From: a virus
Direction: 5' to 3' (one strand)
Length of the DNA stretch: 51,208 nucleotides
Virus record (IMG/VR): IMGVR_UViG_3300014789_000001
Positions 13,004-51,208 of the stretch are shown here, in pieces. Made by a program: the position numbers and the translations under genes. Each line of letters starts with the position of its first letter. The first letter of the stretch is position 1. The notes under the pieces were generated by a model. It was not told the DNA's origin and ran no database searches. It was given only the letters and a program-made list of their open reading frames with translations.

Positions 13004-13008
13004 CTGCC

Positions 13009-18395: not shown

Positions 18396-18562
18396 AGCGG
18401 CTTTCCTCCTTCCTTCCAGTATTCGACGAAGTAGGTGTAGCTTTTGGAGGTTCCGCGCTTCTCCTTGGCCTGCCGGACGGCGTATCCGTTCCGGGCAAGT
18501 ATCATGACGAGGGTATCGCGGTCTGCGGCTGAAACACAGTCGATTTTCCTTCGCTCATCCAC
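18392..18562 (-). CDS. Small hypothetical protein (56 aa)
   Basis: This ORF is not on the ORF track. It starts at GTG 18562 after TAGGAGG, and its stop overlaps the next start (GTGA). Confidence 0.4.
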   Translation of the reverse strand: MDERRKIDCVSAADRDTLVMILARNGYAVRQAKEKRGTSKSYTYFVEYWKEGGKPL

Positions 18563-19388
18563 TGTTGTCGCCTCCTATCATGCCGGGCGGGTGCTCCCGG
18601 AGGATGTCGTCGCCCCAGATAGGCTTGAGGCTGTCCTTCATGAAGACCGCCGTGCCCGCCTCGCGAGCCTTCTTAACGATGGCCTCTACCCATTCCCGCT
18701 TCGGCTGCTGCTTCCCGCTTCCGGGGCCCGTAATGGCCCCGATGATTACCCATCCGACGCGCTCAAAGGGGTTTTCGCCGCCGGTGGCCTCGGTGTCGAA
18801 GGGCTCCAAAAGGGGCTCGACGCTCACGAAGGTGTTTGCCTTGTCCCAGAAGAAGAAGGGCATATCCGGGCGGGTGATGGTGGTTCCGTACCAGAAGTTC
18901 GGCTCCGTGGGGAGCTTCCCGGCGCTGGCGAGGTCGCAATACCGCTGCGGGTTCTTGGTGAGGAACAGGTAGGTGTGCCTCGGGGCCCGGCGGCAAGCGT
19001 CAAAGACCTGCTCTATCCAGTCGCCCGGCACCCAGCGCCCGAACAGGTCTGCCATGCTGCCGACGAAGATGGTGGCGGGGGTAAGGCGCTTCTCCGGGTA
19101 TGTGAGCGTGTACTTGTGGAGCGTGGGAGCGAAGTTCTTGGGGTAAGGCGTCGAGCGCCGGTAGTTGCCCTGCCAGTCCTTGAGCTCCGTGGGCTTCTCG
19201 ACGACGTAGCAGTCCACGCCTTCGTTGACAAACGCCGTGATGCCGCTCTCATCTGGGAATTCGTCAATCTTGGGGCCGAACCGCGTTGCGATGCGCCGGG
19301 CGTAGCAGTAGGGGCAATCGTGCCGGCAGCCGGTGACGGGGTTCCATGTGTGGCTGCACCACTCAATTTTCGTCTTGTGGATGTTCAT
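18555..19388 (-). CDS. Phage Gp37/Gp68 family protein (DUF5131)
   Basis: A 277-aa ORF with the family N-terminal signature IEWCSHTWNPVTGCRHDCPYCYA. Confidence 0.75.
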   Translation of the reverse strand: MNIHKTKIEWCSHTWNPVTGCRHDCPYCYARRIATRFGPKIDEFPDESGITAFVNEGVDCYVVEKPTELKDWQGNYRRSTPYPKNFAPTLHKYTLTYPEKRLTPATIFVGSMADLFGRWVPGDWIEQVFDACRRAPRHTYLFLTKNPQRYCDLASAGKLPTEPNFWYGTTITRPDMPFFFWDKANTFVSVEPLLEPFDTEATGGENPFERVGWVIIGAITGPGSGKQQPKREWVEAIVKKAREAGTAVFMKDSLKPIWGDDILREHPPGMIGGDNSG

Positions 19389-19563
19389 GCTGGGCCTCCT
19401 GCGCTGTTTCCGGGAAGTGCGCCGCCTGCCCGACGTACTGCCGGGCAAAGGCGCTGACGTACTGGCGGCGCTCCTCCTCGGAGGTAAAGGCTGCGGGTAT
19501 CTTCTCGCGGGTGAAACTGTCCATGAACTGCTTTGCCCGCTTCTTCAAAATCCGCCTGTTCAT
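19363..19563 (-). CDS. Hypothetical protein
   Basis: A 66-aa ORF whose start overlaps the stop of the upstream gene (ATGA). Confidence 0.4.
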   Translation of the reverse strand: MNRRILKKRAKQFMDSFTREKIPAAFTSEEERRQYVSAFARQYVGQAAHFPETAQEAQHEHPQDEN

Positions 19564-20423
19564 AAAGCGTCCTTGACGATGTCCGCAAGGTGTTCGAGCT
19601 TCTCCGTCTCCGCGTCTTCGTTTTTGCCGAAGATGACGGCGAGCTGGTTGAGCATGATGGACACGTCGGCCCGCTCCTCCGCGATGCTCTCGACAATGTC
19701 GTCGTAGTCCCCTTGGTTGAAGTCTTCGTGACGGATGTACTTGAGGAGGGCTTTGGTGAGCTCGCTCATCTCCTCGATGGCGACGAGGATTTGGGCCCGC
19801 TCGCCGAACTTCTGCACCGCCGCCTTATAGAGCTCCTCCTCGCTCACCTCAATGGTGCTTTCGTCATTCCCGTCCAGAGATACCGAGATGTCGGATTTCA
19901 GATACAAAGCCGGGCGGACGCCGCGGCTGCCGTAGTACGCGCAGCCGTCGTTGAGCGTCCCGCCCGAGTTCACGTTGCGGACGAGAGAGGGGTAGCCTGC
20001 CCGCTCGGTGGAGTACGGCGTCGCCAGCCACCACCAGCCTTCGCCGCCGAGGGGCGGGAGGATGTCGCGGTGCTGCCGGTATTCCTCCTCGGTGAGCAGG
20101 CCCACCTTCGTCTTGACGTTCCCGTAGTCCTTGAGGCCGTCGTTGCTGGTGAGGTCGATGAACTGTTCCGCGACGGCCCCTTCTCCGAAGGCGTCCTCGA
20201 GCCTCTCGAGGAATTCCCCGTTGAGGTAGGCGAGCAGGGTGCTGACGCCGAGGTCGTTGCGGTTCTTCTCATCGAAGGCCCGACGCTCGACAATGCCGGT
20301 GGAAACGATGTGCGTGACGATGGGTAGCCCTTGGCTGCTGTTGGTGTGGCCCAGCACGAGCCACTGGATGCCCGCGCCGTAGAAGGTCTGCCCGCGTTTG
20401 AGGGTTTTGAGCTTCGCTTTCAT
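19560..20423 (-). CDS. Remote DGR target protein: variable ligand-binding domain (WW...GVRPA type) fused to C-terminal MazG-like NTP pyrophosphohydrolase-like domain
   Basis: A 287-aa ORF. Residues ~1-190 are homologous to the N-terminal domain of 39519..41225 and contain VR2. Residues ~195-287 carry EExxE/ExxD-type motifs (AIEEMSELTKAL, EERADVSIMLNQL) typical of small MazG-like domains. There is no internal stop or start at the junction. Confidence 0.8.
   Translation of the reverse strand: MKAKLKTLKRGQTFYGAGIQWLVLGHTNSSQGLPIVTHIVSTGIVERRAFDEKNRNDLGVSTLLAYLNGEFLERLEDAFGEGAVAEQFIDLTSNDGLKDYGNVKTKVGLLTEEEYRQHRDILPPLGGEGWWWLATPYSTERAGYPSLVRNVNSGGTLNDGCAYYGSRGVRPALYLKSDISVSLDGNDESTIEVSEEELYKAAVQKFGERAQILVAIEEMSELTKALLKYIRHEDFNQGDYDDIVESIAEERADVSIMLNQLAVIFGKNEDAETEKLEHLADIVKDAL
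19907..19985 (-). repeat. DGR variable repeat 2 (VR2)
   Basis: Hand alignment to TR 42461..42539 gives 77-79 bp with 10-12 mismatches, every one at a TR coding-strand adenine. Homology is lost beyond 19985. Confidence 0.8.
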
Positions 20424-25800: not shown

Positions 25801-26618
25801 GGTTCTCCGACGGGGGAGGTGAAAATCTGGTGGAGCCAGAAGCCGTGTTCGACGCCTTCGTCGTTGAAGTTGAGCTGATTTGGGCTGCCGCAGTAATAGG
25901 CCGGGGTATTGCACGGGAGTTTCTGCGGGCGATGGATATGCCCGAAACAGGCGAGGTCTACGCCGGTGCTGTCGATGGTCGAAGGTAGGATGACAACATC
26001 CTGCCCCGCGAGGAAGGTGCTGCCGTTGTCGGCTTCGCTGCCGGCGACGGTGTAATGGGCCACAAGGATGCTCGGGATGCTCTTGTCGAGCTCTGTGGAC
26101 AGTCCGAGGAGGACGTCGTTGATGAGCGCGGTAGCGTTGCGGTTCTCGGTCTCCTTATCCGCTCCGGGGCAGAACAGCCGCAGGCGGCCTTTGTCGAAGC
26201 CAGGGAGGGCCAAAATCTGAACCGGCCCGGCGCTGGTGGTGAGCTTCTCGATGCCCGGAGCGGTGTAGATGTGGAGGTTCTTTTCGTCCTTGGTGATTTC
26301 CCGCACAGTCTCGAAGGCGCGGGGGTTGTCGTGGTTCTCGGTGCCGAACAAAAGGACGACGTGCTCGCTGCTGCGGCACAAAGGCCGGATGAATTCGGTG
26401 ATGGCGTCGTTCACGTCGTCGAGGGCGGTGTCGGCCCAGACGCGTGAGCGGTTGAACAGGTCTCCGGCGATGATGGTGACGTTCGGCGTCTCCGTCGCGG
26501 CCCGCTGCGCGATGTACTTCATGCAGGCGATGGTATCCTGCCTGCGGGCGTTTTTACCGTCCCGAACCGGCCCCGTAAGGTCTCCGAGGTGGATGTCGGC
26601 GGTGTGCAAAATCTTCAT
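22809..26618 (-). CDS. Fused SbcD-SbcC (Mre11-Rad50-like) nuclease-ATPase
   Basis: A 1269-aa ORF. The N-terminus carries phosphoesterase motifs (ADIHLGD, GDLFN, GTENHD, GHIHRP). These are followed by a Walker A (GQNGVGKSS), a ~600-aa coiled coil, the signature SGGEKV and a Walker B (LFIDEP). Confidence 0.9.
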   Translation of the reverse strand: MKILHTADIHLGDLTGPVRDGKNARRQDTIACMKYIAQRAATETPNVTIIAGDLFNRSRVWADTALDDVNDAITEFIRPLCRSSEHVVLLFGTENHDNPRAFETVREITKDEKNLHIYTAPGIEKLTTSAGPVQILALPGFDKGRLRLFCPGADKETENRNATALINDVLLGLSTELDKSIPSILVAHYTVAGSEADNGSTFLAGQDVVILPSTIDSTGVDLACFGHIHRPQKLPCNTPAYYCGSPNQLNFNDEGVEHGFWLHQIFTSPVGEPGTAVETKFVRTPERQHYTYRVGPEDVTAFTASGELPEAPEPLKDAIVRVRYNCTAEQEKALNKADLQKKLLAAGAFYVAEVLPEDVEDVAGESEVTEHEGPTEALGRYLKKLEVAPEEAARLMELAAPLIKKADDGRDADKRTGNFAPISIEVKNYRSYTEAEFDFSDVHMAMVNGQNGVGKSSLFMDAIADCLYEQTRKEDIGGWVRDGTKSGAITFTFGMGAETYRVIRTRTKSGRGTLAIHRRNPETGEWLDESDTTMKLTQARIERVLGMDCNTFCSVALIRQDAYGLFLEASSDRRMEVLSALLGLDIYGRLEDLAKDGASEQRRKIAATRERLSVLEEQIDAKAELEAELGQYDDKITAAQKEAETLETAIAAAQRSEAMREELTKQAEAKEREAAATGADITDKGNRLSAVKAQLSNAETLAAAAPAAEEAAAAVEDARAVIEAAAPHEERMRACIQSIADKEKTLITADRAIQSARQTIAEAKAIISKGEDIRQAQGAIEALGTRRADAEARLRSFQQAHKAVLEAKAARDAQLAEVKAEISRREERIAYYAKRAALLEDSGCPAPENATCNFLKDAVAAKGSLETLREGLAEYRAAAKAEYERLTAAFQQAKAAYTAIGDPAAELEEIAAEEAGHRQLAGLAPKLAAAETLVEELTKTIETEEARIRETTKAIEEANAALPQYREAHTRAEAARASLNAKKALADTLPQCRAASATADALRPQVSSLEADIEQLKQKQATATVEAAAIRSKIPAETGGSTLVALTARRRELTETVNALSASKGGTRTKLDAIAEAEEQAGEYRKDITAIARALNDYQTLVQAFGLDGIQYMIIRGVVPEIMHRANDILAAMTGGRMAVDIRTEKEQKSTQKIVNSLEVWINSITGGSRPYQSHSGGEKVKIALAVTLGLADVKARRAGVQLGMLFIDEPPFLDADGTEAYADALANMAARNPGMRILAISHDPTMKARFPQNIIVQGGENGSSVSME

Positions 26619-36017: not shown

Positions 36018-37031
36018 TTAGACCGCGTTGAGGTACTTGAGGGCGACCCAAGAAACGATTTCCTGTAAGAGGGCCTCCTCCTCGCCTTTGTGGGTGGCGA
36101 GCTGCTTGACGGTGTACTTGCGGTTCGGGCCGGACACGCCAGAGGGAACCGCCTTCCCTCTGGTGGTTGCGAGGCCGCCGTAGACGGCTCCGTCGTCGAT
36201 GGTGACCTTGCTGCCGACCTTGATGGCCGGGGCCGCCGTGGCCCCGGTGCCGGTCTTGGTGACGTAATCGAGGGAAATCCAGCCGACGCCGGATTTGAGC
36301 TTGCCCCATTTGGTCGCGCCGGTGCCGTCCGCCTCCGCGACGATGGTATAGATGCCGGGGGCGATGAAGCCCTTGCGTTCGTAGTTGGTGCCGGGGCCGC
36401 TGCGGATGTTGAGGTCTGTGACCGTCACCTTGACGGTGTAGTTGGTAGCGGTCTGCTCGCTGTCGGTGGTGGGTGTGCTCGGGGTGGAGCTCCCACCGCC
36501 GAGGCGTCTGGTGACCTCCTCTGCGATGGCCCCGTGCCGCTCGTAGAGGTAATCTCCGGGGCACGACTTGTTTGCAAACCAGCGGTGAACCGTCATCACC
36601 ATCTCCCCGGATTTCGGGGTGTAAGCGAGGGTCTTTGCCTTGTCTCCGAACCACAGGAGCTTCTTGGCTCCGTTACGGCGGCAGATGTCGGTAACGAGGT
36701 CGAGAAGGGCTGCGTATGCTTTGTCCGTGACGGCGTAGGGTGCCTTGTTGTCGCTGGCCGTCTCAATGGTGACCGCACGGTGGTCGTTGGAACCGCTGGA
36801 GGTGCACCAAGAGCGGTCTCCCTCATCGACGCACAGGCCGATGCTGCCGTCGTAGCCGACGACATAATTGCAAGACGCCTCCTTGCTGGTGGGCTGAAAG
36901 ACCTCGCATCCGCGCTTTGCCGTTACCTGCCCGACGAAACAATGGATGCTGATGGTGTCGATTTTGTGATTGCGGGGGCTGTTCTTGTTCGGGCTGATTA
37001 GGGTGTAGTTTACGAGAGGGCTGTTGCTCAT
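36018..37031 (-). CDS. Endolysin: N-acetylmuramoyl-L-alanine amidase (Amidase_2/PGRP-like) with SH3b-type wall-binding repeats
   Basis: A 337-aa ORF starting at ATG 37031 after AAAGGAGA. The N-terminal part (IDTISIHC...NYVVGYDG...DHRAVTIE...H..F..K.CPG) is followed by SH3-like repeats (LNIRSGPGTNY...). Confidence 0.85.
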   Translation of the reverse strand: MSNSPLVNYTLISPNKNSPRNHKIDTISIHCFVGQVTAKRGCEVFQPTSKEASCNYVVGYDGSIGLCVDEGDRSWCTSSGSNDHRAVTIETASDNKAPYAVTDKAYAALLDLVTDICRRNGAKKLLWFGDKAKTLAYTPKSGEMVMTVHRWFANKSCPGDYLYERHGAIAEEVTRRLGGGSSTPSTPTTDSEQTATNYTVKVTVTDLNIRSGPGTNYERKGFIAPGIYTIVAEADGTGATKWGKLKSGVGWISLDYVTKTGTGATAAPAIKVGSKVTIDDGAVYGGLATTRGKAVPSGVSGPNRKYTVKQLATHKGEEEALLQEIVSWVALKYLNAV

Positions 37032-37050
37032 GGTAGGGTCTCCTTTCGGG

Positions 37051-37416
37051 TCAGTCGCTTTTCTCTGCGGTCTCGATGGTGGTCGTGACAACGGCGTCCG
37101 GGATGCCGATAACAGGGACGATGCCGTTGGTGTTGAGCTCGTAGACGGCGGCCTCAATGAGGGCGTCGAGCTTGGCTTCGTCAACGGTGATGCCGTGCTC
37201 GCGGAGCCAGTTGATGACGTACTCCTTCTTCTCCTCGCCGCGCCCGCTGCCGGTGTAAATCTGCTCGGCGGCGGCGACGGCGATTTTCACCCACGCATTG
37301 ATTTCCTTCTGCTGCTCTGCGGTGGTCTTGCTCTTGATGTAGGGCACGAGGAAGGCGGTGATGAGGGCCGCGATAAGGGCGGCAACGGCTTCGATGATGG
37401 GCGTGATGTCGTACAT
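37051..37416 (-). CDS. Holin, LL-H family-like
   Basis: A 121-aa ORF with one N-terminal TM helix followed by INAWVKIAVAAAEQ..G..K...V..WL. Confidence 0.65.
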   Translation of the reverse strand: MYDITPIIEAVAALIAALITAFLVPYIKSKTTAEQQKEINAWVKIAVAAAEQIYTGSGRGEEKKEYVINWLREHGITVDEAKLDALIEAAVYELNTNGIVPVIGIPDAVVTTTIETAEKSD

Positions 37417-38702: not shown

Positions 38703-39500
38703 TTACGCGGAGACCTCCTTGTAGTAGTCGTTGATGAGCGCCGGGGGTGCCCAATTCTCCTGTTTGTTGAAGGCGCGTAGCACCTCGTACTCGGTGCCGT
38801 CGTGAGTGAAGTGGTCGCCTACGGCGAAGGTGTGGCCCTCCTTGAGGTTGTCCCAATCTGGGACGTCACTGGGCTCCGGCTCCGGTTCGGGTTCCGGGCC
38901 GGGCTCTGGTTCCTCGCCGCCGTCCTCGTAGAGTTTGTACTCCGAGGGGACAAGGTGCGGGTAATGGGGCTCGTAGAGCGTGACGCCTGCCTCCTTGATG
39001 GGGGTATAGAGCTTCCCGTCAATGGGGTCGCGGCGGACGGCTCCGTAGGGGACGTGCTCGCCCCATGCGAAGTCGAGGTAGGTGCCGGGCTCCTCCGGCT
39101 CCTCCCGGATGAGACGGAACAGGGTGCGCCCGCCCTCGGTGCCGGGGGCGTAGAGGGCCTGCGCTTGGTGCGTGACGGTGCAGATGTAGGTCTCGCCGCT
39201 GGTGCCGTCGATGATGGTCTCGCCGACGAACACCTGTCCCATGTTCGCCGCCCAGATGCGGGCGGTTCCGACGGTGGCGATTTCTTTGATGACGTCGTCC
39301 GTGAGGTCGCCGGTGGCGAGTTTCCCGGCTCGCAGAAGGGCGTCTTGCGCCTTGCGGATGTGTTCGTCCGGGTAGCTGCCGCCGAGGGCCTTGATGGCCT
39401 CCCCGGCGTCCAGAATGGCCGCCCAGATGTCAACAAGCTCTACGGCCTTTTCCTGTTTCTGCAAAGTCCTCTGGTATTCAAGGCTGTTGACGTTCGGCAT
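38703..39500 (-). CDS. Protein with two CBM5/12-like carbohydrate-binding repeats and a Pro/Glu linker
   Basis: A 265-aa ORF with the motifs W....G..F.VG........YIC...H and FAVGDHFTHDGTEYEVLRAFNKQENWAPP. Confidence 0.45.
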   Translation of the reverse strand: MPNVNSLEYQRTLQKQEKAVELVDIWAAILDAGEAIKALGGSYPDEHIRKAQDALLRAGKLATGDLTDDVIKEIATVGTARIWAANMGQVFVGETIIDGTSGETYICTVTHQAQALYAPGTEGGRTLFRLIREEPEEPGTYLDFAWGEHVPYGAVRRDPIDGKLYTPIKEAGVTLYEPHYPHLVPSEYKLYEDGGEEPEPGPEPEPEPEPSDVPDWDNLKEGHTFAVGDHFTHDGTEYEVLRAFNKQENWAPPALINDYYKEVSA

Positions 39501-39518
39501 GATGGTCTTCCTCCTCTC

Positions 39519-41225
39519 TTACACATAAGAGCCGCTTACCGGCCTGCTGCTGATGGTGTCGTAGCCGGGGCTCTTGGCGATTTGCACTTTGACGCCGACG
39601 CCCCATTTCTCTGCGGTCTTGGTGGCGTTCGAGAAGATGTGTTTGAGGCCGATGGTGGCGAGCTCCCATGTGGGGCTGTCGTCGAAGGCGTTGTTGCACA
39701 CAGAGACGGTGACGTCTTCTGCCGCTGCGTAGTACTGCAGGGACACAAGAATTTTCTCGGCTGCGGCGTCGGTCTCGATGGGGCCGACGATGTACTCGAT
39801 GCCGGTGACGCTGCGGGTGAAAGTGGTCGTCCGGGTGGCACTGTTGCCGAGGGTGTCCGTGACCTTGACCTGCATGGTGTGCTGTCCATTCGACAGGGCC
39901 GCGAACTGCGCCTCTGTGAGGGCGAAAGTGTAGGTCTGGTTTCTTACGGCATCCTCGATGGTGCGGATTTCGTTCCCGTCGAGGCTCTCAACGACGGTGA
40001 GCGCGTCCTCGGTGTCTTGGTCGTTCACGGTGTAGGCCATCGAGGGCGGGCTCGTGACGGTGCCGAGGTCGGTGTCGCTGCCGCTGATGGTGGGGTCTAC
40101 GTTGTGGACGACGGTTTTGACCGTGCTGCTGGTGTAGCCGCTGTACGCTCCGTTGACGTCCTTCGCCCGGACGCGCCACTGAACCGTGTTCGCGCTGGTG
40201 CCGACGCCGGTGTCGTCGTATCTGGTGGCGCTGCCGGTGTAGATGTTCGTCCACGCGCCGCTGTTGATGCTCCGCTCGAGCTCATAGGTGATTGCGCCGC
40301 CCTCTGGGTCTACGCTGGCCGCCCACGAAATTTCTGCGGCCTTGCCGCTGCGTACTTCGTCCGGGACGGTGATGCTGGGCGGGGTCGTCGGGGCTTGGTT
40401 CCATACAATCGTGTACGCTCCATCGCTGTCCGGGCTGTCAGATACCAAGATGGAAGATGACAGATTCAAAGCCGGGCGGACGCCGCGGCGGCCGATGTAC
40501 GCGCTGTAGCTGGCGAGCGTCCCGTCCGAGTTCACGTAGCGGACGAGGTACGAGTTCGACGCGAGCGGGGAGCGCAAGTAGTAGTACCAGTACTGGGATG
40601 CGCTCAACGAGCCAGACGTGTACTCGCTGTTCGATACTGCCTGCGCGGTGGGCCGGCATTGGCGGCTGGCGTTGTCGCTGAACATGGCAAGGGTGGAGCC
40701 CTCCGAGACGCCGTTCTCTGCGCCGAGGCCGACTTCCGCCTTGGACAGCAGGAAGACCTTGTCTGTGACGGTCTCGGAGCCGCCGCCGTCTACGCTGGCC
40801 TTCGCTACGGTGAGGGTGGTGTTGAGGATGGCGGCGAGCATCTGCGCCGAGAAGCCGGTGAGGAAGCCCGCCTCATCGTCGTACTCATTGTAGTTGCTCC
40901 ATACATTGGCGTTGGTGGGCGCTGCGTCTGCGCCGTGCTGGGCTTGATACCACGGCGAGCCCGCCTTGTTTAGCCATTGGCGGAGGTTGGAGAGGGAATA
41001 CCTGTTGTTGCCATATCTCCGGCGGTTGCTGTCGCTGTTCCCGCTCTCAATCGCATCGAAGCAGGCGAGCTTGAGGATGTTCGCAGCGACGAGGGTGACG
41101 GAGTTCGCCGGGTACCCGGCGTGGTTCTTGTCGCCTATCTCCCAGATGATAGGGACGCCGTAGTAGGTCGTGCCGGTGTCTTTGACCTTTGCCTTTACGG
41201 GCAGGGCACTAATTGATTGGGACAT
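39519..41225 (-). CDS. DGR target protein 1: tail-fibre-like receptor-binding protein with internal variable domain followed by FN3/Ig-like domains
   Basis: A 568-aa ORF starting at ATG 41225 after GAAAGGAG. It contains VR1 at about residues 217-253 (LRSPLASNSYLVRYVNSDGTLASYSAYIGRRGVRPAL). An FN3-like segment follows (ISWAASVDPEGGAITYELERSINSGAWTNIY). Confidence 0.85.
   Translation of the reverse strand: MSQSISALPVKAKVKDTGTTYYGVPIIWEIGDKNHAGYPANSVTLVAANILKLACFDAIESGNSDSNRRRYGNNRYSLSNLRQWLNKAGSPWYQAQHGADAAPTNANVWSNYNEYDDEAGFLTGFSAQMLAAILNTTLTVAKASVDGGGSETVTDKVFLLSKAEVGLGAENGVSEGSTLAMFSDNASRQCRPTAQAVSNSEYTSGSLSASQYWYYYLRSPLASNSYLVRYVNSDGTLASYSAYIGRRGVRPALNLSSSILVSDSPDSDGAYTIVWNQAPTTPPSITVPDEVRSGKAAEISWAASVDPEGGAITYELERSINSGAWTNIYTGSATRYDDTGVGTSANTVQWRVRAKDVNGAYSGYTSSTVKTVVHNVDPTISGSDTDLGTVTSPPSMAYTVNDQDTEDALTVVESLDGNEIRTIEDAVRNQTYTFALTEAQFAALSNGQHTMQVKVTDTLGNSATRTTTFTRSVTGIEYIVGPIETDAAAEKILVSLQYYAAAEDVTVSVCNNAFDDSPTWELATIGLKHIFSNATKTAEKWGVGVKVQIAKSPGYDTISSRPVSGSYV
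40469..40576 (-). repeat. DGR variable repeat 1 (VR1)
   Basis: Base-by-base hand alignment to TR 42461..42568 gives 108 bp with 16 mismatches, all at TR coding-strand adenines. Confidence 0.9.
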
Positions 41226-42279
41226 CTGCTGTTTCGCTCCTTTCAAAAATCTCATTGTAGAGTTGGTCGTATTTCTGTATGAGCGCGTGGCAATCGCCGT
41301 GGGAGGCGTGTGACCGCCAGCTCTGGTAGCTCTCGGTGACTTTCTCCTTGGTGATGGCTCCGCTCTCGTACATGACCTTGTACTTCCGCAGTTTCCGCTT
41401 CATCCGCTCGCGGCTGGCCCGGCGCAGCTTGCGGACGACTTTGCCGGTGTCCGTGAGGTAGCTGTGGAAGCCGAGAAAATCCAGTCCATTTCGGAGGGGA
41501 AATATCTGCGTCTTGTCGTTGAGCTCGAGCCCTCGCTCCGCGAGGTGCTCCGATATGGCCTTCCATGCGGCCCGGAGGGTGTCTTTGCTTTCGTGGATGA
41601 TGTAGAAGTCGTCCATGTATCTCCCGTAGTAGCGGAAGCGGAAGCCCTCTTTCATGAGGTGGTCGAGCTTGTTGAGGTATAAGAGCGCGAATACTTGGCT
41701 GCTCTGGTTGCCTATGGGTATGCCGACGTTGCCCGGTGTGCTGTCGATGATGAGGTCGGTGAGCGCGAGGCTCCTTTCGTCGTCGAGCAGCTCCCGGACG
41801 TCCCGCTTGAGGATGTCGTGCCGGATACTGGCGAAGTAGTGGTGGACGTCCGCTTTCAGTACCCATCCGTCTGCGCTGCCGTGCCTGCGGTAATATTCCC
41901 GCATGAAGTCGCGCAGCCGGTTGAGGCCGAAGTGGGTTCCCTTGCCTATCTGCGAGCCGTAGTTGTCGAGAATGAAAGGCCGGGTGAGGACGTCGTAGAG
42001 AATGGTGTCGCAAAAGGCGTGTTGGACGATTTTGTCCTTGAAGGAGTTGGTCTGAATGAGCCTTTTCTTCGGCTCGAAGACATAAAACTCCCGGTAACCG
42101 CCGGGGCGGTATGTGCCGGTGCTCAACTCCTCTTGCAGGACGGCGATGGCCTCGAGGGCGTTCATCTCTACCTTGGCGACAGTGTTCTTCCACCTCTTGC
42201 CGCGCCGGGATGCCCGGTAGGCGTTGTAGAGCGTTTCAAATTCGTAGACGGTATCAAAATTGACCTTCGTTTTCTGCAT
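41209..42279 (-). CDS. DGR-type reverse transcriptase
   Basis: A 356-aa ORF starting at ATG 42279 after GAGGAG. It has the RT motifs through YMDDF plus the DGR-typical IGNQSSQ. The gene is adjacent to the TR and overlaps the target gene start by 17 nt. Confidence 0.9.
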   Translation of the reverse strand: MQKTKVNFDTVYEFETLYNAYRASRRGKRWKNTVAKVEMNALEAIAVLQEELSTGTYRPGGYREFYVFEPKKRLIQTNSFKDKIVQHAFCDTILYDVLTRPFILDNYGSQIGKGTHFGLNRLRDFMREYYRRHGSADGWVLKADVHHYFASIRHDILKRDVRELLDDERSLALTDLIIDSTPGNVGIPIGNQSSQVFALLYLNKLDHLMKEGFRFRYYGRYMDDFYIIHESKDTLRAAWKAISEHLAERGLELNDKTQIFPLRNGLDFLGFHSYLTDTGKVVRKLRRASRERMKRKLRKYKVMYESGAITKEKVTESYQSWRSHASHGDCHALIQKYDQLYNEIFERSETADVPIN

Positions 42280-42308
42280 CTGCTTGGGCTCCTCTAAACA
42301 CCGCAAAA

Positions 42309-42336
42309 GCCCCGAGGCCCTTACGGGCTCCGGGGC
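42309..42336 (-). other. GC-rich hairpin with GTAA loop followed by U-rich tract, between TR and RT
   Basis: The minus strand reads GCCCCGGAGCCC-GTAA-GGGCCTCGGGGC (12 positions: 10 Watson-Crick pairs, one wobble pair, one mismatch) followed by TTTTGCGGTGTTT. Confidence 0.55.
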
Positions 42337-42460
42337 GTCGGTGCTATGTGTTTATCCTCGGCGGTATGCCTTTGGACGGGATATTCCTTCCTTTGATGGG
42401 TGGGCCTCTGCTTTCGGCCCCGCCGCAGCGGGGTCTACTTGGTCGCGGTAAATTCCACCG

Positions 42461-42568
42461 AAGCCGGGCGGACGCCGTTGTTGCCGTTGTACGCGTTGTT
42501 GTTGTTGAGCGTCCCGTCCGAGTTCACGTTGCGGACGTTGTTCGAGTTCGACGCGTTCGGGGAGCGCA
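42461..42568 (-). repeat. DGR template repeat (TR)
   Basis: The coding-sense strand holds 13 AAC codons and 29 adenines by hand count. It is non-coding in context and is the donor for VR1 and VR2. Confidence 0.9.
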
Positions 42569-42620
42569 CTACGCACAACAAAAGTCGATGCCGTACAAGG
42601 AATACCCCAATGAAACGCCG

Positions 42621-43022
42621 TCAGCCTTTCGGGCTGAACCGCGCTGCATCCTTCTTCCGCCACGAAGCTGTGAGGTTCTTGACGTCGAGTATCTTCTTCG
42701 TCCAGTCCTCGCAGCGGCGGATGTCGATGTAGCCCCTTTCGAGGGCTATGTCGAGTAGGTTGAGGAGGAGCTTACATTTCGTAAGAGCTCTCTTTTGAAG
42801 GTCGAGGCGTTCTGCTGTCTCTGCGGCGCTGCGAGGGAATATCTCGTTCGCCTCTATGAGGCATTCCAGAACGTCGAGGGCCGCTGTCTCCATCCGCTGC
42901 GAAAGTGTGAAGCGGACGCTTTTCGGAAACACCTTGTTGCTGGCCCACATGGTATGGTTCACAAGGTCTTTGGCCTTGCTTATGGCGGTGAGTTCGCCGG
43001 GCTTGCCGTTCGTAGCAGACAC
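42621..43022 (-). CDS. avd: Accessory variability determinant (Avd-like four-helix-bundle protein)
   Basis: A 133-aa ORF with the motif FPKSVRFTLSQRMETAALDVLECLIEANE and a basic C-terminus, immediately upstream of the TR. The start is uncertain because GTG 43022 abuts the GGAG. Confidence 0.7.
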   Translation of the reverse strand: MSATNGKPGELTAISKAKDLVNHTMWASNKVFPKSVRFTLSQRMETAALDVLECLIEANEIFPRSAAETAERLDLQKRALTKCKLLLNLLDIALERGYIDIRRCEDWTKKILDVKNLTASWRKKDAARFSPKG

Positions 43023-43240
43023 CTCCTTTCAGCGAGGGCGTCGAGCTCTTCTTGGCTGATGCCCTCCACTTCGAGTACGCCTTTCTTCACTGTGATGCTC
43101 ACCTGTCTGCCGTCTATGCTGGTGCCGGTGAGGTACAGCCCGTCATGCCGCCTGCACGGGCAGGGCGTCTCCAATTCGGAAATGAGGTGCGGTATGAGAC
43201 AGGCGGCGGTCTCCTCCGTGCAGAGAACCGCCGCCGTCAT
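42980..43240 (-). CDS. Hypothetical small protein (tail-fibre accessory candidate)
   Basis: An 86-aa ORF with an ATGA overlap to the tail-fibre gene. Its 3' end overlaps avd. Confidence 0.35.
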   Translation of the reverse strand: MTAAVLCTEETAACLIPHLISELETPCPCRRHDGLYLTGTSIDGRQVSITVKKGVLEVEGISQEELDALAERRCLLRTASPANSPP

Positions 43241-43935
43241 GCCTCAATGAGCCTCGCTGTCTGGTTCCACACGCCGTCGATGATGGTGACGTTGGAAAGG
43301 GTTGCGAAGTCCGCGCTGAACGTGATGCCGCCGGGCATATCCCCGCTGATGAGGTCGGAAAGAAGGTCGATTTCGTCCCCGTAGTCGTCGAGGATTTCTT
43401 GCAGGCCGGCGATGTCGGAAATTTCGTGCCCGTGGCCGATGAGCGCGTAGTTGGCGAGGTCTGCCATCGTGGCGAAGGCGTCCGGGTTAATGATGGCGGT
43501 GACGATGCTGACGCTCGAGACAATGGTAACGAGCGTGAAGGTCGCCAGCTTGTTCACGGCGTCGCCGTCCGGGCGTATCCATTCCGGGTGTTCCTGCAGG
43601 GAGAGGTAGGTGTAGAGGATTTCTCCTTCGTCCGGGTCTGTGGCCCAGAGGCCGAGCTCCGTGGCGTTGAAGCCGGTCTCGACGCCGACGCTGCTGACCT
43701 GCGCGACGATGGAGACTTCTCCGTTGTTGCTGTTCGCGATGGAGGCAATCATGCCGTCCATAACTTCGTGCCCGAGCTCTGTCATGCTGTCCGGGCTGCT
43801 GCCCGAGGGGATGCTCCCGTCGCCGACGCTGACGCGGGTGAATTGCAGTCCCTCTCCCGAGGCCATGAGCTTGGCGATGAGGTTGTTCCCTTTTTGGGTG
43901 AGGTAGCTGCCGTCGTTGTAGCCGATTTCTGGCAT
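43237..43935 (-). CDS. Tail fibre protein (P2 gpH N-terminal / DUF3751-like)
   Basis: A 232-aa ORF. YLTQKGNNLIAKLMASGEGLQFTRVSVGDG...ELGLW matches the tail-collar fibre N-terminal pattern. Confidence 0.55.
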   Translation of the reverse strand: MPEIGYNDGSYLTQKGNNLIAKLMASGEGLQFTRVSVGDGSIPSGSSPDSMTELGHEVMDGMIASIANSNNGEVSIVAQVSSVGVETGFNATELGLWATDPDEGEILYTYLSLQEHPEWIRPDGDAVNKLATFTLVTIVSSVSIVTAIINPDAFATMADLANYALIGHGHEISDIAGLQEILDDYGDEIDLLSDLISGDMPGGITFSADFATLSNVTIIDGVWNQTARLIEA

Positions 43936-43956: not shown

Positions 43957-44640
43957 TTAATATGCTGGCCGGATTGTGATGTGTGCCAGCTCGTAGGCGT
44001 AGCTGTTGAGGTAGATGGTGCTGCTGGCCCTGCGGTTGATGACCGGGGGCCTTATCGTCATCCTCGACGAAATGGCCGCCCCGGTGTTGAGGTAGAGCGT
44101 CGCTTCGTTCCGCCGGTAGGTGCGGAGGAAAAGCCTCATCCCGACGCCTGCCGCGACGATGCGCTTCATGACGCCGGCGATGAGCTCCGCCGTGTCAATC
44201 TTCTCGGCCTCGAGGTCTGCTTCGTCCACATATATCCACACCTTCGCGGGGAAAACTTCGTCGAGGTCTACTTGTTCCGGCTCGATGTCGAAAAGGGTCG
44301 CCGCCGCATTGATGACGGTCTCAATGTCGCCGCCGGAGAGGAGGCTTATCATCTTGACCTTAATCAGCAGGCGGTAGAAGGCGTCAGGGGCTCCGTCTCG
44401 GGCTACGCCGAAGTTTTCCCCGTAGCGGTCTAATACCGCGCCCTGCGCGTTGTCAAGGTCGTCCCAGAGGAGTATCTTGTCGCTCTGGTCGTGGACAAGC
44501 TCAAGGCCCCACGCAAGGGTGTTGAACAGCCGCCCGATGTTGGTCTCGAGGGGGAGGCTGCTGTATGCGTTCCTCACGTCGTCCCGGTTGTACGCGCCGG
44601 TGAGCATATCGAGCATCGTGTGTAGGTAGCCGTGGCTCAT
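43957..44640 (-). CDS. Baseplate/tail protein, P2 gpI / XkdU-like (DUF2313)
   Basis: A 227-aa ORF following the baseplate J gene, with the pattern LDRYGENFGV.R.G..D..YR..I. Confidence 0.55.
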   Translation of the reverse strand: MSHGYLHTMLDMLTGAYNRDDVRNAYSSLPLETNIGRLFNTLAWGLELVHDQSDKILLWDDLDNAQGAVLDRYGENFGVARDGAPDAFYRLLIKVKMISLLSGGDIETVINAAATLFDIEPEQVDLDEVFPAKVWIYVDEADLEAEKIDTAELIAGVMKRIVAAGVGMRLFLRTYRRNEATLYLNTGAAISSRMTIRPPVINRRASSTIYLNSYAYELAHITIRPAY

Positions 44641-45827
44641 GTGACGCTCACCTTCGCTTTCTCTGTGTATGCCTTCTCTCTGGTGTCTACCTCGATGTTG
44701 TAGGTGCCGTAGTCGCTGCCGTCCGGGCTGGTCTGGAGGGTGAAGTCGAGGACGCCGGGGATGGTGTAGATGACCTCCGGGAGCCGGTTGTAATACACGG
44801 TCTCGCCGATGGTCGTCCCGCCCTTCACGTCGCTGCCGATGTAGTCGATGAGGGCCTGCGCGATTTGGTCTTTCCCGTCCACGGGGAAACGGTTGGCGTC
44901 CGTCTCGAGGTCTGTGACCTTAATCCACACCGGCACAAGGGTCGGCCTCGAGAATTTGATGTTGTAGGTAACGCCGCTGGAAGACAGGACGGCGACGGTG
45001 GTGCTGCCGTAGGTTTGGATGCCCGCCGCCTTGCGCCGGAAAATCTGCTGCGCGACGTCGCTGTCGAGCCCGCCGTAGACGACGGCCTCGATGCTGTGCG
45101 GGGGGAGGCCCTCGCTGTCTGTTTCGTCGGTGTCGTTCTCGTACACGATGGCCGAGTAGACACCTTCGACGTTCTGCAAAATCTCGCCCCGGATGGCATC
45201 TGCGTTGACACCGCCGGCATAGTCCACAGATTGGTAATACCTGTCCCGGTATTCCTCATCCGTCTCGCGGGCCCGGCCTCCGTCGAAGGCTGCCGGGTTC
45301 GTGACCGCCGTTATTCCCTCCGGGATGCCGGGGTTGATAACGACGGTGACGGTTCCCGCTGCTACGTTGCCCTCTGGGCCCGCTGTGGTGGCCTGTGCGG
45401 GCAGAAGGACGGTGCCCCCTGTTCCTATCTCCCCCTGCGCCATGACGACGAATTGGAGGCCTGCTACGGTTCCTGCGAGCCACCCTACGGGGACGATGGT
45501 TCCCGGCGTACCCGTAATTTGGAGGTAGCCGCTTGACTTCTGCTCCGATAGGAGCTTGAGGCCGATGGCCTTGCCGAGGTTGTAGAGAGAAGTTCCTACC
45601 GCCGTGTCAACGAAGCGCGAGTTGTAGACGTCCTCGATGGTGGAAAAGAGCATATTCAAAATCCAAGCGAAAATCCGCAGGAACAGGCCGATGGGCGAAC
45701 GGACGGTGAGGTTCGCCTTGCTGCCGAACAGCTCCCTTGCCTTGTACTCGAGGGCGTCGAGAAGCTCCGTGTATGTGGGCCTTCGGAAGCCTCGCTCCGT
45801 GAGGCCCCATTCGTTTTGTGTGCTCAC
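44637..45827 (-). CDS. Baseplate J-like protein (gp47/XkdT family)
   Basis: A 396-aa ORF assigned by size, its position after the gpW-like gene, and the motif TELLDALEYKARELFG...VRSP. Confidence 0.75.
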   Translation of the reverse strand: MSTQNEWGLTERGFRRPTYTELLDALEYKARELFGSKANLTVRSPIGLFLRIFAWILNMLFSTIEDVYNSRFVDTAVGTSLYNLGKAIGLKLLSEQKSSGYLQITGTPGTIVPVGWLAGTVAGLQFVVMAQGEIGTGGTVLLPAQATTAGPEGNVAAGTVTVVINPGIPEGITAVTNPAAFDGGRARETDEEYRDRYYQSVDYAGGVNADAIRGEILQNVEGVYSAIVYENDTDETDSEGLPPHSIEAVVYGGLDSDVAQQIFRRKAAGIQTYGSTTVAVLSSSGVTYNIKFSRPTLVPVWIKVTDLETDANRFPVDGKDQIAQALIDYIGSDVKGGTTIGETVYYNRLPEVIYTIPGVLDFTLQTSPDGSDYGTYNIEVDTREKAYTEKAKVSVT

Positions 45828-48681: not shown

Positions 48682-51168
48682 TTATGCGTAGGCGTTCTTG
48701 ATGTTCATGGTGTCGTATTCCTCCTCGCGCATCTCCTTGTAGAGCCGCCGGAACATGGCCTCCGCCTGCGCCATGAGGCTGTCGGCGGTGCCTTGGTCTA
48801 CGTTCCCCTGAACTTGCAGGGTAAGGCTCGGGGAGAAGCTGCTCGAGGAGTTGATGTTGCTCGATGCGCCGGCGATGAGCTGCTCGCTCTTGTCCGCCGG
48901 GATGATGGCCGTGCCCTGCGGGAGGAAGGCGACCTCTCCGCCCTCCTCATTGATGCGCGTCCAGCCGCCTTCAAAGTTGTCGGTGCCCTCCGCGTTTCCG
49001 GGGATGGATGTCACGCCGACGCTGACGGACGCGCTGCTCGCGCTGGCCGCTGCCGAGGCGATGCGATTGAAGGCGGCGACAATGGCGTTCGCGCCGTTCT
49101 CTGCCGCCGTCGTCATCCGGCTCCATGCTGTTTCGGCGTCTATTGCCATCGTGGCGTAGGTGCTGCTGGCCTCTGCGCCCATCGTCTTGAGGTTTAGGTC
49201 TGTGATGTCCTTGGTCTCGATGATGCTTTCCTGCGCGGTGGCATTGGCCTCTGTTGCGGCCCCGGTGACGTCCGAGGTGTACTGCGACGTGTCAACAGCG
49301 AGGCTGACTTCCGTGTTCGCGCTCTCTTGCAGGCCGTTGACGGCTCCGTTGAGCCCTTCGACCTCCTCCTTGCTCTCCTTCGCGCCGCCGAAAAGGCCGG
49401 AGAAGAAGTTGACGACGGCTCCGACGCCGTCTGCCAGCCAGCCGATGATTGTGCCGAGCACGTCCCCTATGACGCCCAGAACATTCCCGATGACCTCAAG
49501 GACAGGGGAAAGGGCTTCGAGGATGGGGGCGATGAGCCCGAGTAGCTCTGCAATCGGCGGGAGAATGGCCTCTGCGATGCTCTGAATGACCGGCATAAGG
49601 GGCTCGATGAGCGAGATGATGACGTTCAAAATCTCCGTCAGCGGCGGCATAAGGGTCTCGACCAGCAGGCCGAGGATGCTCGCCAGCGGCGGCAAAACGG
49701 TCTGCGCGAGGTTGCCGAATACCTCAATGAGCGGCGTCGCGGCTTGGAATACCGTGCCGAGGACGTCCGTTAGGACGGGCAAAAGGGCTTGCCCGAGCTC
49801 CATAATGACCGGCATGGCCTGTGAGAGGCCTTCCGAGAGCATTTCCACAAGGCCGAGGAGCATGGGCTCGATGGTCGGCCACGCCTCGATGATGGTGTTG
49901 AGAAACTGCTCGATGACTGGGGTAAACTTCCCTCCGGCGTCCTCCATGAAATTCGTCCAGATGCCGTTGAGGCTCTTGGTGCTGTTGGTGAGGCCGTCAG
50001 TCTGGTTGATGGCCGCCTGCTGCACCTTGGAGCTCTGCTCGATGATGGATGCAAGCCGGACTTGTGCGAGGGTGGCTTCGTCCATTTCGTCGATGTTCTC
50101 CCCAAGGCCCATCTTCATGGCCTGCGCCTTGACCGTCGCTTCGTCCAGCTTGACGCCGTACTCCGCGAGTGCCTCTCCGTTACCCTGTATGCCCTCTTGG
50201 ATGAGGGTGAGGGCCTCGGTGTCGTCCATCGAGAAGGCGTTGCCGAAGTCGTAGGCGAGGGAAGTGGTGGTCTTGGACAGCTCTGCTGCCGCGTCGTCCG
50301 TGATGCCGAGGTTAGTGTAGAGGGCTTGGTTGCTGACGAGGAAGCCTTGCACCTCCGTGTTGCTACGGTGAACGGCGTCCGCGTAGTTGTCGGCCCATTC
50401 CCCGACGTCTGTGCCGGCGAACAGGTTATCGAACTTCGCGGAGGTGTTCTCTCCGAGCTTTGCTGCCTCTATCGCTGCGCCGGCGAATTCCTTAATGGCG
50501 TCCGTGGCCGCTTGGATGGCTTCGATACTCAAGAAGGCTGCGAGCGCCCCCTTGATGGCGTCCTTCACTTGGCCCCCCGCGTCGCTGCCTTCCGCGCCCA
50601 TGTCGTCGAGCGCCCGCTCTGCGTCCTTGGCTTCGTCCTCTACGTCGTCAGCCGCGTCAGCGGCCCCGTTAAGGGCCTGCACGAGCCTTCCTCGTATGGT
50701 TTGTATAGGATGGGTAAAGGCCGTTCCAATGGCCTTTGCGCCCTTTGTGACGTCGTTCTTGAAGCCGGTGAATTGCTTTTGCGTATAGGCGATGGCCCCG
50801 GAGACGCCGGTGCGGAAGCTCTTGGCAAGCGACTGTCCGCTCTGGATGCCCGCTGCCATCGTCTTCTTGAAGGCCGCGCCGAAGCTGTCGGCCTCCGCTC
50901 CCATTTTTCGGAAGCTGTCACTCGCATCGTCACCGGCGTCGTCGAAGTCCGCGCCCATCCTCTGGGCGGCGGCTCCGGCGTCCCGTGCTGCGTCCGCGCC
51001 TGCCGCGCCCATGTCGCTGATTGCGCGGCTGCAAGACTGTGCCCCAGCCTCTGCCCGGTCTACGGCCTCATCGACGTCGCCAAGGCCGCTTTCCATCTGC
51101 TCGATGGCGTTCAAGGCGTCCGACGCTTGGAAGCCTATGCCGTAGGTGAGGTCTCTTGCGTCTGCCAA
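48682..51168 (-). CDS. Tail tape measure protein
   Basis: An 828-aa Ala/Gly/Leu-rich helical protein starting at TTG 51168, 5 nt after AAGGAGGTGA. It lies between the chaperones (across the circular junction) and the baseplate genes. Confidence 0.8.
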   Translation of the reverse strand: MADARDLTYGIGFQASDALNAIEQMESGLGDVDEAVDRAEAGAQSCSRAISDMGAAGADAARDAGAAAQRMGADFDDAGDDASDSFRKMGAEADSFGAAFKKTMAAGIQSGQSLAKSFRTGVSGAIAYTQKQFTGFKNDVTKGAKAIGTAFTHPIQTIRGRLVQALNGAADAADDVEDEAKDAERALDDMGAEGSDAGGQVKDAIKGALAAFLSIEAIQAATDAIKEFAGAAIEAAKLGENTSAKFDNLFAGTDVGEWADNYADAVHRSNTEVQGFLVSNQALYTNLGITDDAAAELSKTTTSLAYDFGNAFSMDDTEALTLIQEGIQGNGEALAEYGVKLDEATVKAQAMKMGLGENIDEMDEATLAQVRLASIIEQSSKVQQAAINQTDGLTNSTKSLNGIWTNFMEDAGGKFTPVIEQFLNTIIEAWPTIEPMLLGLVEMLSEGLSQAMPVIMELGQALLPVLTDVLGTVFQAATPLIEVFGNLAQTVLPPLASILGLLVETLMPPLTEILNVIISLIEPLMPVIQSIAEAILPPIAELLGLIAPILEALSPVLEVIGNVLGVIGDVLGTIIGWLADGVGAVVNFFSGLFGGAKESKEEVEGLNGAVNGLQESANTEVSLAVDTSQYTSDVTGAATEANATAQESIIETKDITDLNLKTMGAEASSTYATMAIDAETAWSRMTTAAENGANAIVAAFNRIASAAASASSASVSVGVTSIPGNAEGTDNFEGGWTRINEEGGEVAFLPQGTAIIPADKSEQLIAGASSNINSSSSFSPSLTLQVQGNVDQGTADSLMAQAEAMFRRLYKEMREEEYDTMNIKNAYA

Positions 51169-51208
51169 GTTTTCACCTCCTTAAATGCCGGAATAGCCGC
51201 CCCCGAAG
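51114..51208. repeat. Terminal direct repeat, copy 2 (identical to 1..95)
   Basis: Exact 95-bp match to the window start. This is most simply a circular-assembly overlap. Confidence 0.9.

Follow-up and report, generated by a model that had tools for sequence, protein, structure and literature searches.

A complete tentaclin-type diversity-generating retroelement with two targets, from an Oscillospiraceae gut phage

The window analysed here is a 51,208-nucleotide stretch of viral DNA (IMG/VR record IMGVR_UViG_3300014789_000001), for which the INPHARED phage collection holds no close genome. It contains a diversity-generating retroelement (DGR) whose core is read from the minus strand in the order avd, template repeat (TR), reverse transcriptase (RT) and target gene (Table 1). 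Genes for a baseplate J protein and a protein with a tail-fibre N-terminal domain lie upstream, and holin and amidase endolysin genes lie downstream. This fits the placement between tail fibre and lysis genes given in the initial annotation, which was also correct in its gene order and in reporting that the start of the target gene overlaps the end of the RT gene by 17 nt. Its identification of the element as a DGR was right but incomplete, in that it covered only the compact cassette, although the name 'VR1' that it used suggests a further one; a second target gene is situated 22.5 kb away.

Table 1. Features of the DGR and its surroundings (window coordinates).
Feature	Coordinates	Strand	Description
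Target 2	19563..20423	-	287 aa; DUF6273 lectin-like domain (aa 1–184) and MazG-like NTP-pyrophosphohydrolase-like helical domain (aa 185–287)
VR2	19907..19983	-	77 nt; matches 3′ 77 nt of TR; ~22.5 kb from TR
Amidase endolysin	36018–37184		Downstream neighbour
Holin	37051–37416		Downstream neighbour
Target 1	39519..41225	-	568 aa, tentaclin-type; N-terminal DUF6273 lectin-like domain, then predicted Fn3/Ig-like domains
VR1	40469..40576	-	In target 1, C-terminal edge of DUF6273 domain
DGR reverse transcriptase	41209..42279	-	356 aa from ATG 42279; ORF extends to TTG 42306
TR-to-RT spacer	42280..42460	-	Conserved structured RNA (alignment of relatives and RNAalifold)
Template repeat (TR)	42461..42568	-	108 nt; 29 A; 13 AAC codons
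A-free 3′ tail	19907–19923 (VR2); 40469..40485 (VR1); 42461–42477 (TR)	-	17 nt, 82% G+C, CGGCGTCCGCCCGGCTT; exact match in all three
avd-like accessory gene	42621..43022	-	133 aa, divergent Avd; upstream of TR
Tail-fibre N-terminal domain protein	43237–43935		Upstream neighbour
Baseplate J	44637–45827		Upstream neighbour

Genes and RNA of the cassette

The ATG at 42279 is the best start for the RT gene, being preceded by a GAGGAG ribosome-binding site, and it yields a product of the length initially annotated; the motifs noted there (YMDD and IGNQSSQ) are both found, within RYMDDFYII and IPIGNQSSQ. The top solved-structure match, over residues 17–350, is 8ub7_A (E = 1.5e-40), a 328-aa reverse transcriptase that we take to be the bRT of Bordetella phage BPP-1, and the alignment sets IPIGNQSSQ on IPIGSLTSQ of bRT and YMDD on YMDD. 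Group II intron RTs, which the initial annotation had raised as a competing affiliation, are more distant (E = 1e-11 or weaker), and Pfam gives a match to RVT_1 (E = 4e-17). The ranking of structure matches and the [ILV]GxxxSQ motif-4 signature place the RT in the DGR clade.

The protein annotated as Avd-like is probably a divergent Avd, with the position and size of its gene fitting that assignment. It matches the NCBIfam model DivGenRetAVD with E = 1.4e-11 (44.6 bits, under the curated cutoff of 80) and Pfam bAvd with E = 7.6e-6 (26.8 bits, under the cutoff of 40); neither sequence nor profile comparison gave a match to solved bAvd chains. DivGenRetAVD is also matched by ten of the 12 positional orthologues that precede the TR in related loci. 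Conserved motifs and hairpins are present in the spacer between TR and RT in an alignment of 17 diverse relatives, and RNAalifold predicts 30 pairs, 23 of them with compensatory double changes; no Rfam family matches the spacer. It is probably the 'Sp' region of the DGR RNA and, by analogy with BPP-1, may play a role in priming.

Target 1 likely starts at ATG 41225, behind the sequence AAGGAG. In the 578-aa ORF the DUF6273 domain spans aa 51–266 (E = 3.4e-35) with VR1 at aa 227–262, and there is a below-cutoff match to Big_13 (E = 2.6e-5). The protein is 47% identical to the nd12_tgt1 tentaclin over its full length including the last 100 aa (E = 1e-170), and 37–40% identical to the 'Hoc-like' protein of FP_Brigit. 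In the tentaclin family the lectin domain is followed by between one and four Ig-like/Fn3 domains, with a conserved C-terminal anchoring Ig-like domain that bears a 7-residue consensus (PMC10743442). Target 1 is presumably displayed on the virion, and published models of homologues suggest a lectin fold for both targets.

The initial annotation implied that this gene order is unusual, which was overstated. The DGR architectures catalogued so far include one in which the target lies downstream of an avd-TR-RT core (Wu et al. 2018, PMC5758913). Of 80 related IMG/VR loci (RT identity 45–99%), 58 have a TR-RT-VR arrangement in which VR1 is close to the 5′ part of a gene with DUF6273 and Ig-like domains. 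Together with the published parallels, this makes the order ordinary for this RT lineage, in which it is the rule.

Template and variable repeats

A repeat search of the window identifies TR and VR1 as a 108-nt direct repeat that aligns without gaps at 85% identity. On the minus strand all 16 mismatches fall at TR adenines (six A to T, five A to C and five A to G) and none at the 79 non-A positions, an outcome with P = 1.3e-11 (hypergeometric, 29 A in 108 nt). The computed alignment agrees with the initial annotation in the coordinates of both repeats and in the adenine specificity of their 16 differences, and the count of 13 AAC codons was reproduced in the target frame. All 29 TR adenines are at codon position 1 or 2 of the target reading frame, a confinement that would allow randomisation of a ligand-binding surface without introducing stop codons. 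The VR2 alignment is of the same kind, with ten of ten mismatches at TR adenines (P = 3e-7). On these alignments one TR serves two targets, with one variable repeat adjacent and the other distant.

The homology of TR to both VR1 and VR2 stops directly after the A-free 17-nt block, a candidate IMH-like homing boundary by comparison with BPP-1. Downstream of VR1 and VR2 there is no statistically supported hairpin or cruciform, with folding z-scores of ~0 that are no better than those of shuffled sequences.

Eight near-identical genomes carry eight different versions of VR1, and 112 of the 114 differences are at TR adenines; the VR1 copy of one genome (L039) has two non-A differences. The TR is identical in four of five near-identical genomes, and the relative L004 has three TR changes, all at A positions. 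Hypervariation is similarly evident in target 2, for which 120 natural homologues at 89–97% identity were compared. High-entropy residues lie within the VR at aa 150, 152, 156, 158–161, 163, 164, 166 and 167, all 11 codons being templated by TR adenines, and only three low-level polymorphic sites are found outside it. Judged from this between-genome variation the DGR has evidently been naturally active in the lineage; the differences speak to past activity there and not to that of this particular copy.

That the cassette is a decayed relic, with mutagenic homing no longer occurring in this genome, appears very improbable. Every ORF is intact, as are the catalytic motifs of the RT, the structure of the spacer RNA has been conserved, the TR is unchanged in four of five close genomes but VR1 is different in each of the eight, and the VR2 codons are near saturation in the 120 relatives, even though a single assembled sequence cannot reveal current activity and the similar two-target DGRs of phages Lelie and CP11 were without read-level variation in culture (PMC11792537).

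There is scarcely any likelihood that the RT derives from some other retroelement (a group II intron, a retron or an Abi/DRT defence RT) with the 108-nt repeat as an unrelated duplication. Its best NCBIfam match is group_II_RT_mat (E = 7.5e-33), but its score of 114 bits falls short of the cutoff, 300, in a collection that contains no DGR RT model; bRT is the nearest structural relative by ~29 orders of magnitude in E-value, Rfam detects neither group II intron RNA nor retron RNA anywhere in the window, and the adenine-exclusive mismatches occur at two separate sites. The combination of a non-DGR RT and a chance duplication is refuted by the adenine-only mismatches, the bRT match and the variation of VR1 alongside a constant TR.

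We consider it very probable that the locus is a functional phage DGR with one template and two targets. In such an element the avd-TR-spacer-RT unit would be transcribed from the minus strand, and the RT and Avd-like protein, acting as a complex as in BPP-1, would copy the TR RNA to cDNA with self-priming from the spacer and misincorporation opposite template adenines. The cDNA would replace the homologous VR by IMH-like homing, with the common GC-rich 17-nt block as the 3′ limit. One rewritten site would be VR1 in the tentaclin gene directly downstream of the RT gene, and the other VR2 in the small DUF6273 protein of the replication module, 22.5 kb off and with a MazG-like domain attached. 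By the same analogy, both targets would have a ligand-binding role.

The second target in the replication module

Target 2 matches DUF6273 (E = 1.4e-10) and, over aa 1–208, phrog_9958 (E = 2e-52). Its C-terminus matches phrog_2245, 'nucleoside triphosphate pyrophosphohydrolase' (aa 192–279, E = 3.5e-19), and is 43% identical to a Clostridium phage protein with the RefSeq name NTP pyrophosphohydrolase. In an alignment with PDB 5ie9 (E = 0.009) the segments EEMSEL and EERADV are paired with EEMGEL and EELGDV. Residues E33, E34, E37, E66 and D69 of the MazG-like domain show little or no variation among 18 homologues and correspond to the EExxE...ExxD metal-binding motif expected in the four-helix domain of the MazG-like all-alpha NTP pyrophosphohydrolase superfamily. 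The lectin/MazG-like fusion is full length in the 120 close homologues and in diverged ones, recurring in clusters below 50% identity and once with the reverse domain order (P0147). On one side target 2 is flanked by genes for a DUF5131 protein and a Holliday-junction resolvase. Its other side has genes for a cell-wall-hydrolase-like protein, a helicase loader and a replication initiator, and SbcCD-like genes. A fusion of a hypervariable lectin-fold domain to a MazG-like domain among replication genes looks undescribed.

The MazG-like helical domain is also found alone and as a triple tandem.

The attachment of a hypervariable lectin domain to a MazG-like domain within the replication module raises the possibility that the second target acts intracellularly and not on the virion. 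It would then be a non-structural early protein whose lectin-like domain directs or regulates a MazG-like pyrophosphohydrolase, e.g. to counter variable host factors or components of defence, a proposal that we regard as tentative and somewhat doubtful. The gene is far from the tail module, and the same kind of non-structural neighbourhood recurs in Toutatis, in Lelie and in nd4, where it adjoins a gene annotated as 'DNA polymerase III alpha subunit'; the phrog_2245 match, the retained EExxE...ExxD motif, and the recurrence of the fusion and of the separate helical domain point the same way. However, the MazG-like domain has no Pfam match, its profile matches to MazG-like proteins in PDB are marginal (E = 0.009 to 0.2), the AlphaFold model of target 2 has a pLDDT of 34 and no usable fold, and the genome position is compatible with a virion protein. 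The domain is also missing from the homologues in nd4 (nd4_tgt2), nd12 (nd12_tgt2, which has an N-terminal DUF3310-like helical motif in its place) and Toutatis, so it is dispensable for target 2 function.

If target 2 does act inside the cell, this large DGR lineage of gut phages would diversify both a virion adhesin and an intracellular recognition module carried on an enzyme, possibly for tracking variable host factors or defence components, and this would contradict the literature, which assumes target-2 proteins to be receptor-binding proteins of the Mtd-like kind. Public metagenomes contain 1,679 target 2 homologues, at least 120 of them at 89–97% identity, which constitute a natural variant set for the residues favoured by selection.

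Relationship to known retroelements

The element is a clean, complete two-target 'tentaclin' DGR of a type already described in related gut phages. Phages of Oscillospiraceae and Faecalibacterium in the human gut carry such systems in abundance, and a new phage lineage is added to this group here.

Phages nd4 and nd12 are gut myoviruses with two-target DGRs (Baykov et al. 2023, PMC10743442), and the likeness lies in the TR-RT-target part. They share the TR-RT core with the target-1 gene directly downstream of the RT gene, a VR1 near the 5′ part of that gene, placed at the C-terminal edge of a DUF6273 lectin-like domain that precedes Ig-like domains, a VR2 shorter than VR1, and a small DUF6273 second target among non-structural genes. 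That target is ~10–13 kb from the RT gene in their genomes, whereas the TR–VR2 distance is ~22.5 kb in this phage. The nd12 TR is 88% identical to the TR reported here, which is the only stretch of window positions 18500–43400 that matches nd12 by megablast; the rest of the phage genomes are unrelated at the DNA level.

The published DGRs of the Faecalibacterium phages Toutatisvirus/FP_Toutatis, Lelie, CP11 and FP_Brigit (PMC5883640; PMC11792537; bioRxiv 10.1101/2024.10.15.618418) likewise have the TR between avd and RT, a first VR gene ('Hoc-like') downstream of the RT gene and upstream of the lysis genes, and a distant second VR gene (17.5 kb off), with both targets being DUF6273 proteins that have the VR at the C-terminus of the domain. 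However, their RTs are only ~45–50% identical to this RT, and their second target is ~215 aa long and without a MazG-like domain. They infect Faecalibacterium; for the present element, by contrast, the closest prophage-like copies are in Oscillospiraceae and Clostridia MAGs.

The prototype DGR, found in Bordetella phage BPP-1, has the order mtd-avd-TR-brt, with its target upstream of avd and not downstream of the RT gene as here. The present element further differs in having a VR that is internal in the protein instead of C-terminal, a second and distant target, a DUF6273 plus Ig-like target in place of the Mtd trimer, and an Avd too divergent for a sequence match to bAvd. The two share adenine-specific TR-to-VR transfer from an AAC-rich TR, closely matching RTs with IGxxxSQ and YMDD motifs, an Avd-family (here Avd-like) gene directly upstream of the TR, a target with a predicted lectin fold where the cluster of tail genes ends, and a GC-rich A-free 3′ boundary.

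Adenine-specific repeats and their natural variation

The initial annotation of a diversity-generating retroelement (DGR) between the tail-fibre and lysis genes is upheld by its reverse transcriptase (RT), adenine-specific repeats, putative divergent Avd and natural variation. A repeat search recovers the proposed template repeat (TR) and first variable repeat (VR1) as a 108-nt ungapped direct repeat with 85% identity, and the likeness breaks off sharply at both ends. All 16 mismatches are adenines in the TR copy (- strand), as had been claimed, with six A>T, five A>C and five A>G changes from TR to VR1 (P = 1.3e-11, given 29 A per 108 nt of TR). Read in frame with the downstream gene, the TR contains the 13 AAC codons previously counted, and none of its 29 adenines occupies a third codon position.

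Coordinates of the DGR components and of other features discussed
Feature	Coordinates	Strand	Remarks
Terminal repeat	1–95; 51114–51208		95 nt, exact
DUF5131 / radical-SAM-like proteins	11732–13144	-	one of the two proteins
Mom-like protein	17182–17676	-	
DUF5131 / radical-SAM-like protein	18555–19448	-	
Target 2	19563–20423		287-aa ORF; holds VR2
VR2	19907–19983	same as TR	~22.5 kb from TR; adenine-tolerant scan
SbcCD-like protein	22809–26618	-	one 1269-aa ORF; SbcD-like aa 1–406, SbcC-like aa 258–1267
265-aa protein	38703–39500	-	between target 1 and lysis genes
Target 1	39519–41255	-	578-aa ORF; best start ATG 41225 after AAGGAG, giving 568 aa
VR1	40469–40576	-	in target 1
RT	41209–42306	-	best start ATG 42279 after GAGGAG ribosome-binding site, giving 356 aa
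TR–RT spacer	42280–42460	-	180 nt
TR	42461–42568	-	
Avd-like protein	42621–43022	-	133 aa

The TR/VR1 pair is joined by a second variable repeat (VR2), which the initial annotation left undescribed and which was found by scanning the entire window for TR matches with changes tolerated at adenines only. VR2 is the counterpart of the 3′-terminal 77 nt of the TR, and 10 of 10 mismatches are at adenines (P = 3e-7). TR, VR1 and VR2 end in an identical 17-nt tail (CGGCGTCCGCCCGGCTT) that is A-free and 82% G+C, and their homology stops immediately past it. This tail resembles the IMH boundary of the element in BPP-1, the Bordetella phage with the prototype DGR, and may be its functional equivalent. 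A search for hairpins or cruciforms downstream of VR1 and VR2 found small stems that are no better than those in shuffled sequence and are unconserved between the two sites.

Comparison of the window with seven near-identical copies from IMG/VR and genome contigs yields eight distinct VR1 sequences in eight copies; these show 114 departures from the TR in all, of which 112 fall on its adenines. Five copies include a TR, and in four of these it is identical. At a 99%-identical relative (locus L004, IMGVR_UViG_3300029782_000059, coordinates 3739–3846) the TR departs from that of the window at three adenines (A>T and AA>GG), and VR1 of the same locus has the same three bases; back-conversion from VR to TR, mutagenic homing that struck the TR itself, and a chimeric assembly are all candidate explanations.

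The protein containing VR2 (target 2) has 1,679 database matches, the best 120 of which are full length and 89–97% identical. Among these 120, entropy is high at aa 150, 152, 156, 158–161, 163, 164, 166 and 167, every one of them a codon templated by TR adenines, and polymorphism outside VR2 is confined to low-level variation at aa 65, 105 and 186. Variation of this kind between genomes, at VR1 as at VR2, is evidence of a functional element in the lineage.

RT, Avd-like protein and spacer RNA

The lengths of the RT and Avd-like proteins and the 17-nt overlap of target 1 with the RT stop codon are as first described. The best RT match among solved structures is 8ub7_A (E 1.5e-40, almost full length), which we take to be the BPP-1 reverse transcriptase (328 aa), and in this alignment the previously noted IPIGNQSSQ and YMDD motifs pair with IPIGSLTSQ and YMDD. 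Group II intron RTs rank below it (E 1e-11 or weaker), and NCBIfam, which has no DGR RT model, returns only sub-threshold group II and DRT matches. A search of the whole window against Rfam matched no families, whether group II intron or retron RNAs or a curated DGR RNA family. By these searches the RT therefore sides with the DGR enzyme rather than with RTs of group II introns or retrons, the alternative raised with the initial annotation.

The Avd-like protein matches the NCBIfam Avd model (E 1.4e-11) and Pfam bAvd (E 7.6e-6), both under curated cutoffs, and 10 of 12 proteins at the same position in related loci also match the NCBIfam model. Solved Avd chains are matched neither by the single sequence nor by a 12-member profile. 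On its sequence matches the protein is called a putative divergent Avd.

The spacer between TR and RT is kept across 17 diverse relatives, and 23 of the 30 base pairs in its predicted fold have compensatory double changes among them. Its motifs include GAGTAG-hairpin-GAAAGCAG, ATCAAAGGA...TATCC, GATAAACACAT, and a long GC-rich hairpin directly ahead of the RT ribosome-binding site; Rfam has no family for this RNA. In BPP-1 a structured DGR RNA recruits the RT–Avd complex and primes cDNA synthesis, and by analogy the spacer fits such a role. A promoter and terminator scan of coordinates 39000–43600 found nothing above shuffled expectation.

Gene order and genome context

The order avd-TR-RT-target, which the initial annotation implied to be odd, proves ordinary in this RT lineage. 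In a simple A-specific repeat scan of 80 IMG/VR loci with RT relatives (45–99% identity), 58 have a TR ~170–450 nt upstream of the RT start and a VR ~600–750 nt past the RT end; most of the other 22 loci are truncated. Faecalibacterium phage FP_Brigit is annotated with the same order (tail genes, RT, a 'Hoc-like' protein and lysis genes), and the arrangement in gut phage nd12 also matches. The avd-TR-RT order is listed as core architecture B1, in which the target can take different positions, and non-adjacent targets occur within the same prophage (Wu et al. 2018, PMC5758913). Two-target DGRs are described in nd4 and nd12 (Baykov et al. 2023, PMC10743442), Toutatisvirus has the same layout, with 17,480 nt separating its second VR gene from the TR (2024 preprint, bioRxiv 10.1101/2024.10.15.618418), and the Lelie and CP11 phages have a large and a small DUF6273 target (2024, PMC11792537). 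The element therefore belongs to an already described type, whose layout is common in gut phages.

The window ends in an exact copy of its first 95 nt and is therefore a complete circularly assembled genome of ~51.1 kb (61% G+C), not a fragment. Its gene content is that of a temperate myovirus, with virion genes (tail sheath, tape measure, baseplate J, tail fibre, portal, terminase and major head protein) and integrase, holin and amidase genes. Nothing in the phage collection is closely related to this phage: when 25 kb of the window was compared with known phages by megablast, the TR alone matched (88% to the nd12 TR). MAGs from the human gut, labelled as Oscillospiraceae and Clostridia, contain the closest copies of the RT (99% identity).

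The two DUF6273 targets

Target 1 contains DUF6273 at aa 51–266 of the ORF (E 3.4e-35) and, beyond it, Ig-like sequence, the organization of 'tentaclins', in which an N-terminal DUF6273 lectin domain precedes Ig-like domains (Baykov et al. 2023, PMC10743442), and it is 47% identical to the first nd12 target over its full length. VR1 lies at the C-terminal edge of the DUF6273 domain and thus falls within the protein's first half, not at its end. The adjacent 265-aa protein has a PEPEPEPEP linker and a weak C-terminal match to the carbohydrate-binding CBM_5_12 (E 3.4e-5, under cutoff), and may be an additional host-binding or cell-wall-binding protein.

A DUF6273 domain is present in target 2 too, and VR2 lies at its C-terminal edge. 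Its C-terminal 100 aa match a PHROG nucleoside triphosphate pyrophosphohydrolase family (E 3.5e-19) and share 43% identity with a Clostridium phage protein that bears this name in RefSeq. Residues E33, E34, E37, E66 and D69 are kept in an 18-homologue alignment, corresponding to the EExxE...ExxD pattern of MazG-like enzymes, and in the profile EEMSEL and EERADV pair with EEMGEL and EELGDV of PDB 5ie9. Membership in the MazG superfamily is probable, not proven, because the 5ie9 match is only E 0.009, the single sequence finds nothing significant in Pfam (nor in PDB), and an AlphaFold2 model of target 2 from 21 near-identical sequences is unusable (mean pLDDT 33.7). The 18-homologue profile gives marginal MazG-family matches only; its top matches, tandem ribonuclease constructs, are spurious.

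The fusion of lectin and MazG-like domains is not an assembly accident, since 120 close homologues contain it at full length and it is seen again in representatives of <50% identity, and since the helical MazG-like domain also occurs alone, three times in tandem (P0224, 308 aa), and once N-terminal to the lectin domain in the reverse order (P0147, 288 aa). In nd4, nd12 and Toutatis the published second target is likewise encoded among non-structural genes, but lacks this domain; the helical regions of the nd4 and nd12 proteins were considered as the same domain and rejected (hhalign probability <1%; an HMM search matched the window protein only). The literature searched contained no paper linking DGR targets with MazG, and such a second target may be new; together with its large set of natural variants it holds most of the remaining interest. 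Publications take the second target as an Mtd-like receptor-binding protein, an assumption weakened by the MazG-like fusion and by the non-structural gene setting; the protein may act inside the cell.

Target 2 is located in the replication module, near genes for a DUF5131 protein, a Holliday-junction resolvase, a cell-wall-hydrolase-like protein, a helicase loader, a replication initiator and the fused SbcCD-like protein, which looks like a palindrome-specific nuclease. A Mom-like DNA modification protein (phrog_1384, E 5e-37) adjoins a resolvase, and its closeness to the two DUF5131 / radical-SAM-like proteins (Pfam DUF5131 E 5e-39; phrog_13321) suggests a putative DNA hypermodification module beside target 2.
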